Positions 9,520-56,312 of a stretch of DNA of 64,000 bases are shown here, piece by piece; within the stretch, counting starts at the first letter, position 1; every line of letters starts with the position of its first letter. The translations under genes were made by a program, and so were the position numbers. The notes beneath the pieces are model-generated. The model ran no database searches, had not been told where the DNA came from, and saw only the letters and a program-made list of their open reading frames with translations. Source of the stretch: Ktedonobacteria bacterium (GTDB lineage: Bacteria > Chloroflexota > Ktedonobacteria > Ktedonobacterales > JACDGC01); NCBI GenBank assembly GCA_027459525.1, contig DAIDIC010000210.1:12326-76325 (forward strand), given 5' to 3'.

Positions 9520-9657
9520 TAGGACTTTCGCTTGAAAGAGCAGCGCATGGTTTCTCGTATCTGCAACAAAAGGAAATCTGGGGCCACCCCAGAACCCCGT
9601 ACAAGGGGATCCGCCCCTTGTACATCCCCGATTTTCCATGCTGCAGCAAAAGTCCTG
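9520..9657 (+). mobile_element. MITE-like structured repeat, copy 2 (forward)
   Basis: Full-length copy close to the consensus. Flanks TTTTT / TTCTT (4 of 5 identical). Lies between livK and livH, antisense to the operon. Confidence 0.85.
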
Positions 9658-9816
9658 TTCTTATATCTGTGTGGTCTTTGACACGCGCCAAACACGTACC
9701 ACATTCATATATTCATTGAATAATTTACCAATACATTGGTTTTCTTATTGATGCTGACAAAGCAAACGCCACAGCGCAAAAATATATTTCCGCAATTATG
9801 TCGCTGTAGCAAAGCA

Positions 9817-15381: not shown

Positions 15382-15651
15382 GTCATTGACAAAAACGTAG
15401 CCACTCGCTTGTTCACTGCGCACACATAGCATCCTGCGCCAATAAAGTGAAATCTGGAAACATCCAGGCCTCAATCTCCGCGCAAAGGGCCAACAATGTA
15501 TGCATTTTTGATGCAGTGCAGCAAGCGAGTGTTTTTGTCTGTATATATTGTTTATTTCAATGCAATTCTTTGGATTTAAACCCATAAATATGGAGTTCCG
15601 CACCGTCTCTTCTCAACATTTCCTCATACATCTCCGCCAAAAACATATTTT

Positions 15652-15788
15652 CAGGACTTTCGCTGCAGCATGGAACATCGGGGATGTACAAGGGGCGCCG
15701 CCTCTTGTACGGGGTTCTGGGGTGTCCCCAGACCTTCCTTTGCTGCAGATGCAAGAACCATGCGCTGCTCTTTCAAGCGAATGTCCTA
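15652..15788 (-). mobile_element. MITE-like structured repeat, copy 3 (reverse)
   Basis: Reverse complement of the consensus. Perfect 5-bp direct repeat ATTTT (15647-15651 / 15789-15793). Lies between flp and cpaB. Confidence 0.9.
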
Positions 15789-15874
15789 ATTTTATTGAAA
15801 CAATTTCGGTAAAATGGACTGATTCTTGCTGAATAGCTATTAGTATTTTCATCGTACAGTAAGGAAAACCAAAC

Positions 15875-25038: not shown

Positions 25039-25057
25039 CTATATATATATATCTGAT

Positions 25058-25194
25058 CATGACTTTCGCTGCAGCATGGAACATCGGGGATGTACAAGAG
25101 GCGGCGCCCCTTGTACGGAGTTCTGGGGTGTCCCCGGACCTCCCTTTGTTGCAGATACGAAAACCATACGCTTCTCTTTCAAGCGAAAGTCTTA
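25058..25194 (-). mobile_element. MITE-like structured repeat, copy 4 (reverse)
   Basis: Perfect 5-bp direct repeat CTGAT (25053-25057 / 25195-25199). The termini carry substitutions (ATGAC.../...GTCTT). Confidence 0.9.
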
Positions 25195-25242
25195 CTGATA
25201 TTGAAAGAATCACCGCTTTTCGGTTACAGCGGCAACAAGCCG

Positions 25243-27357: not shown

Positions 27358-27864
27358 TTATATCAGAGAAAACTGCCAATTAGCGCGCAAATCATATGTA
27401 ACGGTTTCCTGTAAAAAAACTGCGCCATCAAAAAAATGAAGCTCTCCGGTCATTTGGCTGTACATATATGGCATTGTTGTCCGAATGCTTTTCTCTGCCA
27501 AATAAATCATCATTTTCTCCGCTTGCCCGGTATGCGCTGCTGTTTGAAAAGTTGCTTCATCTGTAATTGGCCATGCGTCTTCACCGGAAAATAGCCGCAG
27601 ATCGGGTGAAAAAGTGGAATAAACCTTTATCAGCCTTTTGCGATCGGTATGAATAAATTGTTCCATAATCATACCGGCAGATCCGGAACTGATAGCGTCG
27701 ATACTTTGCAACAACGCCACAAAAGTTGCCGGATTCATAGCAAGGGACGCCAACAACGGCTGAATATAATTTTTTGTCAGTAAAAAGCTGTATCCGCTTA
27801 TATCTTGTTCAATAACTATAATACGAACGATTGCCGAATTTGTTTCATTTGCTTGAAGATACAT
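27358..27864 (-). CDS. Hypothetical protein (168 aa) upstream of the GT2 gene
   Basis: Complete ORF co-directional with GT2. No family recognised. Confidence 0.5.
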   Translation of the reverse strand: MYLQANETNSAIVRIIVIEQDISGYSFLLTKNYIQPLLASLAMNPATFVALLQSIDAISSGSAGMIMEQFIHTDRKRLIKVYSTFSPDLRLFSGEDAWPITDEATFQTAAHTGQAEKMMIYLAEKSIRTTMPYMYSQMTGELHFFDGAVFLQETVTYDLRANWQFSLI

Positions 27865-28066
27865 GATTTATCACGGTCTTTTTATGAAAAACTGCGGATA
27901 ACTGCGCTTGCGACGCAGTTATTGCAAAATAGAAATTGCGCTTATGCAACTTTGCGCAACAAAAATTCTGATTCTATTTTTTGTAATCTGTAATTGTTAC
28001 GTTTTATGGCCATTATAGCAAATATTGGCGTATTAGAAAATGTATTAGCAAAGATGTTTTCTTTTA

Positions 28067-28204
28067 TGGGATTTTCGCTGGAAAGAGAAGCGCATGGTTC
28101 TCGTATCTACAACAAAGGGAGGTGTGGGGGGCATCCCAGAACCCCATACAAGGGGCGGAGACCATTGTACATCCCCGATGTTCCATGCTGCAGCGAAAGT
28201 CCTG
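28067..28204 (+). mobile_element. MITE-like structured repeat, copy 5 (forward)
   Basis: Full length but diverged at the 5' end (GGGATTTTCGCTGG). No recognisable target duplication (TTTTA / TTATT). Confidence 0.8.
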
Positions 28205-28352
28205 TTATTATTGAGATAACCACTATCAACTCGTACTTGCGCTCTGGCCAGCAACCCAGAAAATAGGCAAAGGCAGAATGAGCGCAAATAAACAAGAATA
28301 TATAAATAATTATTTATATATAAAAATATTTACATTTATTCATAAAAATTGC

Positions 28353-28382
28353 TTGACTTTTGCCAGGTAAATCTGTTATAAA
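28353..28382 (+). promoter_or_regulatory. Candidate sigma-70-type promoter for the ArsR-MIPS gene
   Basis: TTGACT (28353-28358), 18-nt spacer, TATAAA (28377-28382), in a very AT-rich tract. Confidence 0.35.
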
Positions 28383-28453
28383 TAGGACAGGACCCTGAAA
28401 ACATCAGGATATACAAATATATAAAAATAATTTGATGTATTGGGATAAATGGT

Positions 28454-29953
28454 TTGTATCAATGGCAATCTTCTTCGGAATTTGATCACAGCCTGCGCGC
28501 ATTAGGCGATGTATACCGATTAAATATCTTACGACTGCTTGCTTCGCAAGGAGATATGACGGTATCAGAAATTACTCAGACACTTGGAAAGAGTCAGCCG
28601 CTTATCTCATTTCACTTGCGCATCCTGCGTGAGGCAGAAATTGTGCAAAAAATACAGCGCGGACGACAAGCCTATTATTCCGTAAACGATCGGGCGCTTT
28701 CGCGCATATATTCCGCAATAAACCGCTTTATTTTTGCCGCGACACCGCATGGCAATGCGCCAAACGGCCGGCAAACACCTGCAAAGGCGCCACATATACA
28801 GGCGCAAGAATCTACAAGGGAGAAATTTTCAATGGGCAAAAAAGTTCGGGTTGCAGTTATCGGCGCCGGTAACTGCGCATCCTCATTTGTTCAAGGTGTG
28901 CAATACTACCAAAACGCCAGCGAACAAGATTTTATTCCAGGCCTTATGCATGTCAACTTAGGCGGATATCATATTCATGATATCGAATTCAGCGCCGCGT
29001 TTGATATTGATTCCACCAAGGTTGGCAAAGACCTGAGTGAAGCAATTTTCTCGGGACCTAACAATACCTATAAGTTTTCCGACGTTCCCAACTTGGGCGT
29101 TACCGTAAATCGCGGCATGACACACGACGGCTTAGGCAAATATCTGTCGCAAGTGATAACTAAAGCGCCGGGATCAACCAGCGATATTGTAAAAATTCTG
29201 CGCGACACCGGCACCGATGTTGTAGTTAATTATCTTCCGGTAGGCAGCGAAACCGCTACCAAATGGTATGTTGAACAAGTGCTGCGCGCCGGCTGCGGCT
29301 TTGTTAACTGCATTCCTGTTTTTATTGGACGTGAGCAATATTGGCGCGAACGCTTTGAAGCAGAACATTTGCCGATTGTTGGCGATGATATTAAAAGTCA
29401 GGTCGGCGCCACCATTGTGCACCGTACACTTACCAGACTGTTCCGCGAGCGCGGTGTTCGCTTAGAGCGCACCATGCAGCTAAACGTCGGCGGCAACACC
29501 GATTTCTTAAACATGCTTGAGCGCGAACGATTGGAATCGAAGAAAATCTCGAAAACTAATTCGGTAACCAGCCAGTTAGATTATAATATTGGCGCCGAAA
29601 ACGTGCATATCGGCCCCAGTGACTATGTTGCATGGCTTACAGACCGCAAATGGGCCTACATTCGCATGGAAGGCCGCACATTCGGCGATGTTCCCTTAAA
29701 TATGGAACTGAAATTAGAGGTATGGGATTCACCCAATTCCGCAGGGGTGGTTATAGACGCCGTCCGTTGCGCAAAATTAGCAAAAGATAATGATGTCAGC
29801 GGCGCGCTGCTTGGTCCTTCCGCCTACTTTATGAAATCGCCGCCAGTGCAATATACCGATCCGCAGGCGCGGATTATGGTAGAGCAATTTATCAGTGAAT
29901 ACGGCGCAGGAGCCGCCGCCGCTCAGCCTTTCACTGAAACACCGGCTGAATAA
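28454..29953 (+). CDS. ino1: ArsR-type winged-HTH domain fused in frame to myo-inositol-1-phosphate synthase
   Basis: Residues about 14-80, [63 protein letters not shown], match ArsR/SmtB. From [26 protein letters not shown] the sequence is a bacterial/archaeal-type MIPS. No stop between the two parts. Internal ATG 28832 has its own GGGAG RBS. The outer start is TTG. Confidence 0.75.
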
Positions 29954-29974
29954 ACCGCACTACACGCCAAAGAT

Positions 29975-30010
29975 TTGCAAGGGGATCAGCCGCCCCTTGC
30001 AAAGGGCGGC
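29975..30010. terminator. Convergent-gene hairpin (two alternative stems), likely bidirectional terminator; related to the MITE apical hairpin
   Basis: TTGCAAGGGG (29975-29984) pairs with CCCCTTGCAA (29993-30002). Overlapping alternative: GCCGCCC (29989-29995) with GGGCGGC (30004-30010). Lies between the ino1 and PNP stops. Confidence 0.5.
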
Positions 30011-30056
30011 GTGGATATTCCCAAAAATCATTTTTCCTCTTATAAAACCTCTAGAC

Positions 30057-32382: not shown

Positions 32383-34731
32383 TTACATCGGAAATAATAC
32401 TGCTTGTTCCGGGGGAGAAAAAAATTCGGCAAAAACGGCGCGGCTCAGCCCATTTTCTAATTTTGCGGCGTATTGATTGCGCAAAATTTTTTTATAATAT
32501 GCAACATCATAGTTGCGGGTATCTGCTCCGGTATATAAAGTAACTTGGCGCTGTCCGGCGTAATAAAACCGTATGCGTTCGCCTTTTGCCCATACCGTTT
32601 TGCCTGCCGCAAGCATCGCTTCATAGGGCGCTTCGCGGCGTGTTTGGCGGGTGTTTAGATATTCTTTGCTGCTTTTTGTCAGCCGCGCAGGTATCAGCAT
32701 ATCTTCTAACGGCAGCGCTTTTTCGGCAAGAAGCGTAAGATAGCGTTGAAATATTTGCGGGATAAGCGCGCTATTATCGCGCAGCAACGCCGAAACGATT
32801 TCCGTAAGAAAATCGGCGCCAAACTTCTCAAATTTGCTGGAGCGAAACGCCACACCTTTTAAGATGATGATATCGTCATAGGTAAGCAGCGCATAGTTTT
32901 TCACCTCATGCGAAAGCATGGCCGCATATCGGCCCTCATATTCCAAATGTATCAACGGGGGCAGCAAAGTGTCTACTTCTTGAACGATGGCGCGTTCCTC
33001 AGTTTCACTCCAAGATTCCGGAACACTAAAGTATACACCATCGGTATCAGCTTCAATTAATTCTGCGCCGCGCGCCTTAAGTTGTTCGCAAATAACATTC
33101 AAGGTATCACGGCCGCGCTTAGTAATTTCATTTGCAGCGTTCATATCGGCAAAGCGCGCTAAACGCACGGAGCCTAAATAGCCATAGGCCGAATTAATAA
33201 TAATCTTCATTGCTGCAGAAAGGCTGTTATAACCGGCGCGCGCATTTTCCGGCAAAGAAGTATCTTTAGATAATTTTTTTGCTTGCAGGCGCTGCTCAAC
33301 CAACCGATCGACAATTCCCAGCAAAGCGCCTAAGCTATCTTGCTGAGATCCAATATGAAATTGTCGCATTAAGGATGGATATAAACTTGCCACATCGGCT
33401 TTTACCACATGTTTTTTAACGCCGGCGGCAAATAAAATAGTTGCCGCGCCGGAATGCGTTGCGCCATTGGGCTGAGTATACGCGGGAATAGCAGTTTGCG
33501 CGCGCAGATATGCGCGAAGCAGCATCGGCTCCAAAATTCCTGTTGCGGGTCCGGCGTCTGCAGCTCGTTCTCCGCGCCGCGGCGCCATTTTAGCCAAAGC
33601 AAAGGCCGCGCCGCCTAAAATTTCAGCAATGGAACCGGCCTCTATCACATCATCCATCGCATAGGCGCGCACTGCGTCTGGCTGTGTTTTCCATGTGTCA
33701 TACACCGCGCCGCCGCTAAGATAAACACGGTTTGGCGCGGCAACTCCAAAATATTTCGCCGTATCTTTCAAACCATGGTTTGGCAAAGCGCGCGCGGCAA
33801 AATCAAAACGCCGCACTGCGTCCAGCGTATCTATGATTTCTCTGCCTTGAATGCTGTAGCGCTGCCGGCCCAAATTAGCAAGCGGAATGGCGTATGTATC
33901 AGAATCTTCGGTAAATGCGCGTACTGCGCCATACCCGCGGGCAGAGCCGCGCGCAGTTCCCAGCACAGATGGCGCGCCCTTTCGGCCCAGCGCCATAGCT
34001 ACGCCAAGCTGTTGCGCGCGATAGAATAAAAACGGCAAATCAAACCCATGGATATTATGGTTTTCCAAAATATCGGGATCGGTTTCCTGAACAACTCGAC
34101 AAAACGCTGCCAATAACTCTTTCTCTGCGGCGGCGTCATCGGCAGATTTTGCGCCAATATCCAAAATACCCTGAAAGCCAAAATTAGAATGAATGGCTAT
34201 AAGAAACACGTGACTATCAGACGGATTCAGACCAGTGGTTTCAATATCAAAGCGCAAACGCCGTATATCGTTAAAATCCAGCCCTTTATAATACGTTCGG
34301 CCACTGGCAATAAGATATTGTTCTTCAGGGGGCAGCCGCAAAACAATATCTTTGCTTAGTTCACCTATATGGCTGGCTTTTGGGTATCCGCGCTGTGCAG
34401 CGCCTGCTAAAATATTTCTTTCAAGCAAACTATTATTTGCGCAGGAAAGTTTCCACTGCAGCGCGCCGGTTCCTTGCAATTTTTGCGCATAGATAACGGT
34501 GGGGTCTGCCTTTTCGGGAAATTCATATTGTATTTTTGGATACGTTAGCATAGCCAGATCAGAAATAAGCGCCCATGGGAGAAAATAATCGCGCTCTAAA
34601 ACCACAGGCTCACGCAGCGATGTGCGCCGCCATACCATAACCGAACCATTGTGCTGCGCCAATATCGATACAATACCGGGAGTAGTATCCCATCCCCAAA
34701 GCCAATCTTCCGGTGAAGCAATACTCATCAT
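32383..34731 (-). CDS. polB: Family B DNA polymerase (Pol II-like) with intact 3'-5' exonuclease motifs
   Basis: Exo I FDIETTG, Exo II NHNIHGFDLPFL, Exo III YAMDDV. Pol A DVASLYPSLM, Pol B KIIINSAYGYLG, Pol C EADTDGVYF. Start set to ATG 34731 (AAGG 5 nt upstream). Confidence 0.9.
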   Translation of the reverse strand: MMSIASPEDWLWGWDTTPGIVSILAQHNGSVMVWRRTSLREPVVLERDYFLPWALISDLAMLTYPKIQYEFPEKADPTVIYAQKLQGTGALQWKLSCANNSLLERNILAGAAQRGYPKASHIGELSKDIVLRLPPEEQYLIASGRTYYKGLDFNDIRRLRFDIETTGLNPSDSHVFLIAIHSNFGFQGILDIGAKSADDAAAEKELLAAFCRVVQETDPDILENHNIHGFDLPFLFYRAQQLGVAMALGRKGAPSVLGTARGSARGYGAVRAFTEDSDTYAIPLANLGRQRYSIQGREIIDTLDAVRRFDFAARALPNHGLKDTAKYFGVAAPNRVYLSGGAVYDTWKTQPDAVRAYAMDDVIEAGSIAEILGGAAFALAKMAPRRGERAADAGPATGILEPMLLRAYLRAQTAIPAYTQPNGATHSGAATILFAAGVKKHVVKADVASLYPSLMRQFHIGSQQDSLGALLGIVDRLVEQRLQAKKLSKDTSLPENARAGYNSLSAAMKIIINSAYGYLGSVRLARFADMNAANEITKRGRDTLNVICEQLKARGAELIEADTDGVYFSVPESWSETEERAIVQEVDTLLPPLIHLEYEGRYAAMLSHEVKNYALLTYDDIIILKGVAFRSSKFEKFGADFLTEIVSALLRDNSALIPQIFQRYLTLLAEKALPLEDMLIPARLTKSSKEYLNTRQTRREAPYEAMLAAGKTVWAKGERIRFYYAGQRQVTLYTGADTRNYDVAYYKKILRNQYAAKLENGLSRAVFAEFFSPPEQAVLFPM

Positions 34732-34797
34732 GAAAACCTTTGCGAGATATTTTGTTCTAAGTATATCATAGCGCAAAAACCGCAGGAAAGTCTGCAG

Positions 34798-55861: not shown

Positions 55862-55911
55862 GAATATCTCCTGTTTTTTACACTATTTATTTGCCAAAAA
55901 TCATTTACCTG

Positions 55912-56048
55912 TAGGACTTTTGCTTGAAAGAGCAGCGCATGGTTCTCGTATCTGCAACAAAGGGAGGTCTGGGGACACCCCAGAACCCCGTACAAGGGGC
56001 ATTGTCCCTTGTATATCCCCGATGTTCCATGCTGAAGCGAAAGTCCTG
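55912..56048 (+). mobile_element. MITE-like structured repeat, copy 6 (forward; closest to consensus)
   Basis: Full-length. Flanks ACCTG / ACATG (4 of 5 identical). Lies in the divergent region between the ADH and Pnkp-like genes. Confidence 0.9.
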
Positions 56049-56312
56049 ACATGGCAATTGGATGGATCATCCAAAACAATATTATAAAAAATTTTAAAGA
56101 AATGGTGATAGATCCAAAATATATTAGTTATTTCTCATGCAATTACATACTACACAAAATATATACCACCGCAGAAAATTGCGCCGGTTAAAAGATATCT
56201 GCTATACTGCAAAGAGACAGAAAAATTAATATGCTGGTGTCCGGCTTAGGCACGCAAAATATAATGAAAGGCCGGCGAACTGCGAAAGCATGCGCCGTAA
56301 ATAATCTGAAAA

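Follow-up and report, generated by a model that had tools for sequence, protein, structure and literature searches.

Is a reading frame in which an ArsR-type DNA-binding domain runs without a stop into myo-inositol-1-phosphate synthase (MIPS) a gene in its own right or the product of an accident, and, if it is a gene, which proteins does it make and what does its DNA-binding half do? The question is raised by a 64,000-nucleotide (64-kb) stretch of contig DAIDIC010000210.1 from a Ktedonobacteria bacterium (hereafter "the window"), whose list of open reading frames (ORFs) contains a frame of 499 amino acids (aa) at 28454..29953 (+ strand, TTG start) that encodes an ArsR winged helix-turn-helix (wHTH), a linker and MIPS. 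An earlier inspection made without database searches (the sequence-only reading) had described it as an ArsR-type helix-turn-helix (HTH) in frame with a full-length MIPS, and domain matches above the family cutoffs at the same coordinates bear this out. The fusion is almost certainly real, ancient and under selection. On balance we favour its being an old, vertically inherited, bifunctional and autoregulatory "trigger enzyme", i.e. an enzyme with a second role in controlling gene expression, the same mRNA also yielding free MIPS; the two products, the DNA binding and any effector are what we infer from the sequences.

The N-terminal part was assigned to the ArsR/SmtB family by Pfam HTH_5 (residues 22-66, 54.2 bits; cutoff 22) and by NCBIfam NF033788 (76.6 bits; cutoff 55), and in a sequence search the PDB structures aligning with the N-terminal 100 residues included ArsR, SmtB, CzrA and BigR. 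AlphaFold placed helices at residues 7-17, 20-32, 37-44 and 48-60, strands at 64-69 and 72-77 and a last helix at 79-94, with predicted local distance difference test (pLDDT) values of 76-92; residues 7-94 (28472..28735, +) are accordingly modelled as a complete α1-α2-α3-α4-β1-β2-α5 winged helix, with α5 predicted to be free for dimerisation. Only the HTH and linker parts of the model were used, as the mean pLDDT of the whole protein is 49.9 (shallow alignment) and its enzyme part is poor. The linker (residues 95-126, 32 residues; 28736..28831, +) has pLDDT below 40 and no secondary structure; counted from the GRQAYY motif it comprises 51 codons, and beside these two figures the earlier estimate of about 45 residues was a fair one. 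The remainder (28832..29953, +) matches Pfam PF01658 Inos-1-P_synth (residues 318-426, 127.6 bits), retains the NAD-binding GxGxxG motif of the MIPS N-terminus as GAGNCAS, and aligns with M. tuberculosis Ino1 (1GR0) with an E-value of 3e-143, residues 4-354 of the C-terminal 373 aa covering 15-365 of 367. The NCBIfam model TIGR03450 (mycothiol_INO1) spans residues 131-480 with 532.6 bits, below its equivalog cutoff of 638, which by sequence indicates the same type of enzyme outside the actinobacterial mycothiol-linked orthologue group. By these matches the C-terminal half is a full-length Ino1-type myo-inositol-1-phosphate (inositol-3-phosphate) synthase (EC 5.5.1.4), and it is predicted to be catalytically active because it is under very strong purifying selection (ratio of nonsynonymous to synonymous substitution rates, dN/dS, 0.007-0.08). 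An identical 499-aa protein is present, without a name, on 3 public contigs. Public annotation calls the fused proteins either a synthase only or a metalloregulator only, and because of these names the architecture is invisible to name-based work.

The sequence-only reading had offered, as an alternative, a recent loss of the stop codon that merged a regulator with its target gene, and had named a stop codon between the two parts in orthologous loci as the sign of a sequencing error or a strain-specific mutation. A search of 5.8 billion proteins identified 12 clusters of 473-548 aa that share the HTH and MIPS architecture at 71-95% identity, together with several hundred stand-alone MIPS proteins of 388-392 aa (Ktedonobacterales where named). 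The DNA of 14 other fused loci was compared, taken from NCBI, ENA, JGI and Logan assemblies, all of them metagenome-derived, and the frame is open in 14/14; one additional fused locus, L023, came from a metagenome scan. The linkers are 23-75 codons long and unalignable between lineages; over 15 loci they contain no stop in frame 0 and 18 and 12 stops in the other two frames, and for shuffled linkers the chance of remaining open is 0.04-0.36 per locus. A neighbour-joining tree calculated from 119 sequences of the MIPS domain only groups all 15 fused proteins in one clade, free of unfused members, and thereby points to a single ancestral fusion event. An origin by recent, strain-specific stop-codon loss or by a sequencing or assembly error could appeal to the many relatives that keep two separate genes and to the metagenomic source of all the data, but it is scarcely credible given that 15 independently assembled loci all have an unbroken fusion, that these have diverged to 71% identity with linkers of very different length, and that the frame is preserved at a synonymous divergence (dS) of 0.4-0.7 to the nearest relative. 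Stops between the two parts were found only in unfused sister lineages and none inside the fused clade. What stands of the earlier alternative is the merger of a regulator with its target; its recent, strain-specific or erroneous origin does not agree with an inherited clade of this depth.

Selection on the two halves points the same way. The dN/dS values for HTH, linker and MIPS are 0.15, 0.53 and 0.007 between the window and the related fused locus L001, 0.15, 0.16 and 0.04 between L008 and L010, and 0.18, 0.46 and 0.08 between L007 and L009; the median for the HTH core is 0.21 (33 usable pairs), and the HTH of the window and L001 differ by 7.5 nonsynonymous versus 13.5 synonymous changes. 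Because HTH dN/dS is low (0.15-0.18; 0.15-0.21 with the median included), comparison of the coding sequences indicates that the HTH is translated and constrained by purifying selection, the linker being the variable part (0.16-0.53). DNA-binding and catalytic domains thus appear, from sequence comparison, in one conserved polypeptide and each under selection, as would be expected of a trigger enzyme. When the N-terminal alignment was used as a search profile, the fused proteins themselves were missing from the results and the top matches were mostly contig-end fragments, which makes the search unusable for counting fused versus separate architectures; a representative library searched at 50% identity likewise gave mostly fragments, with two leads, P0242 and P0369. 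A third hit, P0388 (PadR and MIPS), was dropped, as it looks like frameshift garbage. As a separate observation, the contig of L007 (JAJPKG010000454.1) is labelled as a proteobacterial metagenome-assembled genome, and its fused ArsR-MIPS nests among Ktedonobacteria-type sequences; it is probably mis-binned.

The closest unfused relatives, L018 and L019, show where the regulator half may have come from. Both carry a separate ArsR-type gene (132 or 129 aa) 61-65 nt upstream of ino1 on the same strand, and its product has in common with the window protein an unusual recognition-helix motif, SQPL[IVL]S[FW]HL. A metagenome scan with this motif identified 80 ArsR loci, 29 of them with MIPS directly downstream; the two are separate genes with gaps of 2-177 nt in 28 of these pairs and fused in 1. 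Because 28/29 pairs are unfused, the distribution in these assemblies indicates that a separate arsR-ino1 pair, present in many soil bacteria, is the common state and the fusion rare and derived. The stand-alone regulator of L018, its proline-rich tail included, aligns over nearly its full length with the first 121 residues of the window protein, and because of this the linker appears to be mostly the regulator's old C-terminal tail plus a remnant of the intergenic spacer. The fused gene of one Ktedonobacteria-like clade would follow from a deletion of the regulator's stop codon together with most of the spacer. The comparison of domain architectures among MIPS homologues that had been proposed from the sequence alone therefore gives a consistent picture: relatives keep two genes (L018, L019 and 28 of the 29 pairs), and the fused proteins stand apart as a clade. 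Beside this clade, P0242, a 181-aa fragment, is a more divergent ArsR-MIPS fusion with an SQPRMSWHL helix and a short linker (...EGSVVSKKVKV...), which by its sequence may derive from a second, independent fusion within the arsR-ino1 module.

ArsR/SmtB proteins bind an imperfect inverted repeat of about 12-2-12 at their own promoter, and classically an ArsR repressor site covers the -10 box of the operon that encodes the repressor. A -35 element CTTGAC[AT] recurs at the corresponding position in each of the 15 loci compared, whether fused or unfused, and most separate arsR-ino1 loci have it too. The fused loci and L018/L019 share the layout CTTGACA, 17-18 nt, TATATAAATA-N2-nnnTTATATA, from which the window lineage departs; the consensus of the site overlapping the -10 (O2) is TATATAAATAGCAGCTTATATA. 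The separate arsR-ino1 loci of the metagenome scan have the same layout, with the site (T/C)ATATAAgcgnnTTTTTATAaA at +25 to +27 from the -35, and over fused and unfused loci the position of the operator-like site is constant at +24 to +28. In 28 sites positions 1-7 (TATATAA) and 16-20 (TTATA) are nearly invariant, which defines a 22-bp inverted repeat of the 7-8-7 type, TATATAA-N8-TTATATA. The 10-mer half-site (at most 1 mismatch) occurs 31 times in 3.3 kb of upstream sequence versus 12 times in the other 156 kb of the loci, and the motif's density in the 220 nt upstream is about 120 times that in the remainder of the loci. In most fused loci a further, weaker palindrome directly precedes the -35. 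As a further observation, a subgroup of the separate arsR-ino1 loci (L030, L039, L048, L051, L057, L084 and L095) carries an extra conserved element, ATTATACC...GTTTGGCAAG, 40-20 nt upstream of the -35.

In the window, the search for a palindrome in the AT-rich region 28290-28450 suggested by the sequence-only reading was rewarded with a perfect 24-bp palindrome at 28298..28321 (candidate operator O1, ATATATAAATAA|TTATTTATATAT; 12-nt arms, 100% complementary, no spacer; no strand assigned to this and the other palindromic sites) and a weaker, overlapping operator-like 22-mer at 28315..28336 (16/20 positions; identical in L001). O1, found by an inverted-repeat search, has the 10-2-10 layout of the half-site TATATAAATA, scores 20/20 on the operator model and contains the only two exact matches to TATATAAATA in the 64 kb; L001 retains a 10-2-10 palindrome and matches the window at about 88% over 28298-28453, while the remaining intergenic sequence is unalignable. 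We do not rely on an apparent restriction of O1 to fused loci: it scores 13-15/20 in most of these and at most 11 in L018/L019, and just two unfused loci were compared. Downstream of O1 follow the -35 box of the putative promoter, TTGACT (28353..28358, +), the conserved CTTGAC[AT] element, and 17 nt after it a -10-like box, TTATAAATA (28376..28384, +), which comparison with the other fused loci suggests to be a remnant of the left half of O2. The 5' untranslated leader contains a small hairpin, CCUGA-aaaca-UCAGG (28394..28408, +; minimum-free-energy fold), which in L001 reads CCCGA-aaaca-TCGGG, a change on both sides that preserves the pairing, and another operator-like 22-mer (28418..28439; 15/20 positions, 16/20 in L001). 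The leader overall is not significantly structured (fold z -0.46), and an Rfam scan of 27850-28900 gave no match, hence no known riboswitch or leader.

We infer from this arrangement that the ArsR domain binds the candidate 22-bp palindromes. Autoregulation through the palindrome is the likeliest role because a site over its own -10 is the classic ArsR arrangement, and we consider it reasonably likely: the ArsR domain would bind the AT-rich 22-bp palindrome and repress its own promoter. The sequence-only reading had named an autoregulatory arrangement as a possibility. In the window the arrangement of the sites is less straightforward than in the other lineages, and several points weigh against a simple repressor model here. 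In the window lineage the site over the -10 has decayed to a half-site (28376-28384), about 80 bp separate the perfect palindrome from the presumed transcription start downstream, a distance at which it would not obviously occlude RNA polymerase, and regulation could differ, e.g. by activation or looping; a consensus promoter scan missed this promoter, whose -10 lacks the canonical final T; and the sites were scored against a consensus built from the same loci, which leaves their constant position and their absence elsewhere as the independent evidence. The remote position of the best site in the window lineage would also suit an ArsR domain that is not autoregulatory at all and instead tethers MIPS to DNA or the nucleoid, controls other genes (e.g. 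for phosphatidylinositol (PI) or PI mannoside (PIM) lipids) or is cleaved off. Such a role is quite improbable, since the motif is almost confined to the gene's own promoter in the counts given above, no other exact site exists in the window, and the same site overlaps the -10 in unfused arsR-ino1 operons.

Which proteins, then, does the mRNA encode? An in-frame TGA at 28433-35 closes the frame upstream, and the sole canonical start ahead of the HTH is the TTG at 28454..28456 (+), the next in-frame ATG being codon 35 (28556), within the HTH; the earlier remark that the long form can start only at a TTG is therefore correct. This TTG has a weak Shine-Dalgarno sequence (SD; gggata) and aligns with the ATG of other fused lineages; the long-form start is an ATG with a good, GGAG-type SD in every lineage except the window, L001 and L005, which have TTG and a weak SD. 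TTG also starts the unfused ino1 in L018 and L019. At the junction with the enzyme an internal ATG (28832..28834, +), the start of a short MIPS of 373 aa, is preceded by the SD AGGGAGA (28817..28823, +), whose core is conserved, in agreement with the ribosome-binding site and start noted earlier. Of the 15 loci, 9 have ATG and 6 have GTG as the junction codon, and none has another valine codon; the junction valines are GTG in 6/6 cases although GTG accounts for only 12-32% of the valine codons in those genes (P ~10^-4.2 given the codon usage of each gene, with lineages treated as independent). An SD core (GGAG, GAGG or AGGA) lies 5-16 nt upstream of 10/14 non-redundant junctions versus 15/280 (5%) of other in-frame ATG/GTG codons. 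The sole conserved part of the linker is formed by the junction residues (R-E-K, K-E-K, E-E-R). According to RNAplfold the 25-nt initiation region has a median accessibility rank of 6% within each mRNA, and in the window it ranks at 5.5%. The in-frame internal start codon is thus conserved in all these loci and an SD core in most of them, as a dual start would predict.

A second, unrelated fusion offers an independent view of the junction. Proteins of 484-490 aa (at least 120 clusters at 90% identity, Gaiellaceae where named; P0369 and P0391-P0509, with genes at L021:4001-5455 and L022:288-1742) have two tandem Arc/Mnt-like ribbon-helix-helix (RHH) repeats ahead of MIPS, an assignment that is weak by score (Pfam Arc 20.7 bits versus a cutoff of 20.4; Mnt repressor E = 0.4). 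Their junction, [RG]-K-[DE]-x-M with DNA ggaaaggaagcgATG, has an invariant Met in 119/119 proteins with a recognisable junction. Upstream of the long-form ATG, at a distance of 10 nt, is a perfect 9-2-9 palindrome, GATAGCACA-tc-TGTGCTATC, and the flanks again contain PI-lipid genes, i.e. a CDP-alcohol phosphatidyltransferase and a GT4+PHP fusion. The RHH-MIPS fusion is by its sequence independent of ArsR-MIPS, in an apparent convergence on the same enzyme.

One mRNA giving two proteins is the most likely outcome because the enzyme's original SD and ATG28832 have survived inside the fused ORF, and we regard the production of both as fairly probable: the mRNA would yield a minor long ArsR-MIPS, from a weak TTG in the window lineage, and a major short, plain MIPS. 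The internal SD is degenerate in L008, L009, L010 and L012, the A/G-rich composition of the junction explains part of its accessibility, and the case for two products is built on conservation among metagenome assemblies; these points count against it. Were the fusion obligate, with only the long form made, the internal ATG/GTG and SD would be relics or be kept for the residues they encode; the weak SD in four loci and the possibility that elongating ribosomes mask internal initiation favour this, but it is rather unlikely in view of an ATG/GTG conserved within an otherwise hypervariable linker, of the exclusive use of GTG for the junction valines at a site predicted to be accessible, and of the invariant Met after R-K-[DE] in all 119 independent RHH-MIPS proteins. 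The opposite case, in which only the short MIPS is made and the HTH frame is a decaying, untranslated remnant, at least in the TTG lineage of the window, draws on the TTG and poor SD of the long form in the window, L001 and L005 and on the decayed -10 operator. We consider it improbable: the HTH of the window and L001 evolves at a dN/dS of 0.15 with frame and TTG conserved, the unfused ino1 genes indicate that TTG is a normal start in these organisms, and a perfect palindrome has been maintained. The proposal of the sequence-only reading that the locus makes both a stand-alone enzyme and a DNA-binding fusion is thus supported as far as sequence evidence reaches, by the conserved internal start and SD, their accessibility and the selection on the HTH. 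Frameshifting or read-through as a source of separate ArsR was rejected, as there is no conserved signal and the stops in the other frames are not conserved.

As to what the regulator would sense, the HTH domain of the window protein contains no Cys, and of the four SmtB α5 ligands only the Asp aligns (DRALSRIY versus DHHIVALY, 1/4); the fused clade as a whole lacks conserved His or Cys in the HTH. Metal or redox sensing by the window HTH was therefore rejected, there being neither Cys/His ligands nor a match to the α3N Cys-x-Cys and α5 sites, and for want of any Cys and of three of the four SmtB ligands the public label "metalloregulator" is, on the sequence, not supported. Stand-alone relatives often carry one or two Cys in α5, which have been lost in the fused clade. 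As an observation on one fused subclade (L007-L010, L013, L023, P0008 and P0121), a linker motif RH[TV]CxxC is present just before the MIPS start; it may be a metal or redox site, and the window protein lacks it. From the absence of a sensor site in the HTH we conjecture that DNA binding is under the control of the enzyme's substrate or product, and the signal would probably reach the HTH via the attached MIPS domain or MIPS oligomerisation. That the enzyme domain acts as the sensor, by analogy with RbkR, BirA and NadR, is a tentative and rather doubtful conjecture. We offer, as speculatively, its wider form: binding of glucose-6-phosphate, NAD or an inositol phosphate to MIPS would alter DNA binding, or mixed long and short tetramers would alter the pairing of HTHs or the bridging of operators, in a design that would have arisen more than once (ArsR-MIPS in Ktedonobacteria-like Chloroflexota and tandem RHH-MIPS in Gaiellaceae), each time keeping an internal start for the enzyme. 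If true, the cell would have, at the ino1 promoter itself, a direct readout of how much enzyme is occupied or present.

The MIPS reaction, from glucose-6-phosphate to inositol phosphate, is the committed step to phosphatidylinositol and its glycolipid derivatives. Downstream of ino1, fused or unfused, in L012, L016, L018 and L019 lie genes for PatA-like acyltransferases, a GT4 glycosyltransferase and a CDP-alcohol phosphatidyltransferase, and in L018/L019 the genes following ino1 comprise two PatA-like acyltransferases, a PHP protein and a GT4 glycosyltransferase. In cultured Ktedonobacteria phosphatidylinositol ranks among the major lipids (PMC12453558), and phosphatidylinositol and PIM-type lipids are the most likely destination of the MIPS product. 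In the window and L001 the fused gene lies away from the lipid cluster, with a GT2 glycosyltransferase, a 168-aa protein, purine nucleoside phosphorylase (PNP), a MarR regulator and YceI as neighbours. The fusion gene and the PNP gene converge on a strong hairpin (29963..30013, no strand assigned; dG -30.4 kcal/mol, z -3.7), which is probably a terminator without a U-tract; lacking that tract, it was not listed by a terminator scan.

Upstream, a copy of a repeat of about 150 nt (28070-28211) occupies the intergenic region, where L001 has no alignable sequence. The family (689-786, 9552-9666, 15645-15804, 25049-25210, 28033/28070-28211 and 55878-56049; both orientations, 76-91% alike) is real, and its local copy, noted earlier as a miniature inverted-repeat transposable element about 250 nt upstream, ends 243 nt before the TTG. 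The same intergenic region, otherwise unalignable, contains a block of about 70 nt (27990-28060) that L001 shares with hardly a difference. This block, placed 130-200 nt upstream of the divergent 168-aa gene (27358-27864 on the minus strand; without a Pfam match), may be the promoter of that gene or a small RNA. Elsewhere in the window, a 797-aa ORF with a TTG start (32383-34776, - strand) encodes family-B DNA polymerase and exonuclease domains (Pfam DNA_pol_B E = 2e-20), the family-B polymerase being an uncommon type for a bacterial chromosome.

To our knowledge, what has been learnt of the regulation of bacterial inositol phosphate synthesis is largely confined to Corynebacterium and Mycobacterium, and the conserved arsR-ino1 module with its 22-bp candidate operator offers a way into the control of ino1 in Chloroflexota and in soil bacteria of other groups. 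The loci also form a natural series, from a regulator beside its target to a regulator fused to its target with both starts kept, which makes them a case for the origins of trigger enzymes, and the fusion of an unrelated DNA-binding domain to the same enzyme in Gaiellaceae adds the apparent convergence.

Full-text literature searches revealed no paper describing an ArsR-MIPS, RHH-MIPS or any HTH-MIPS fusion, in agreement with the sequence-only reading, which knew of no characterised example; by these searches the ArsR-MIPS fusion is undescribed, and the class of regulator-enzyme fusions is already known. By fold and α4 recognition helix the DNA-binding half matches the non-metal-sensing autoregulators BigR, NolR, PagR and SdpR, the α3N/α5 metal sites being absent (the PDB sequence search matched BigR, NolR and PagR among others; the NCBIfam models of SdpR and PagR scored below their cutoffs). 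HlyU, another non-metal-sensing ArsR/SmtB autoregulator, gave no match in our searches. As for BigR-type autoregulators, the candidate operator of ArsR-MIPS is an AT-rich inverted repeat overlapping the promoter. The BigR-type proteins are stand-alone, of about 100 aa, and several sense via cysteines, whereas here the C-terminus of the domain runs into a 373-aa enzyme.

In-frame internal starts that give two isoforms are found in IF2 (alpha/beta), ClpB and CheA (long/short). These share with ArsR-MIPS an internal start with its own SD and a common C-terminus; their isoforms have been demonstrated experimentally, whereas those of ArsR-MIPS are predicted from conservation. As a dedicated ino1 factor the ArsR domain has a counterpart in IpsA of Corynebacterium and Mycobacterium, a LacI-type regulator of ino1 for inositol-derived lipids (PMC3899939). 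IpsA, unlike the ArsR domain, belongs to another family, is encoded elsewhere in the genome and is unfused. IpsA is reportedly an activator of ino1 that responds to inositol.

Regulator-enzyme fusions are well known as a class (RbkR, BirA, NadR, PutA; PMC5397151). Within it, ArsR^M, an ArsR-methyltransferase of Brevundimonas sp. M20 that binds its own promoter and retains enzyme activity (PMC10190100), is like ArsR-MIPS in the fusion of an ArsR-family HTH to an enzyme; ArsR^M, however, binds As(III) through a cysteine site and serves to detoxify arsenic, whereas the HTH of ArsR-MIPS lacks Cys/His sensor residues and is attached to an enzyme of lipid-precursor synthesis. RbkR, the archaeal riboflavin kinase/regulator, resembles ArsR-MIPS in that both halves are conserved and sister lineages have the unfused enzyme (PMC5397151). 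It combines a MarR-like HTH with riboflavin kinase, here replaced by an ArsR/SmtB HTH and MIPS. RbkR binds palindromic sites in the promoters of its pathway (PMC5397151), for which ArsR-MIPS has candidate sites, and ligand control of DNA binding has been shown for RbkR and is conjectured for ArsR-MIPS; a free enzyme made from a retained internal start is not described for RbkR and is probable here.

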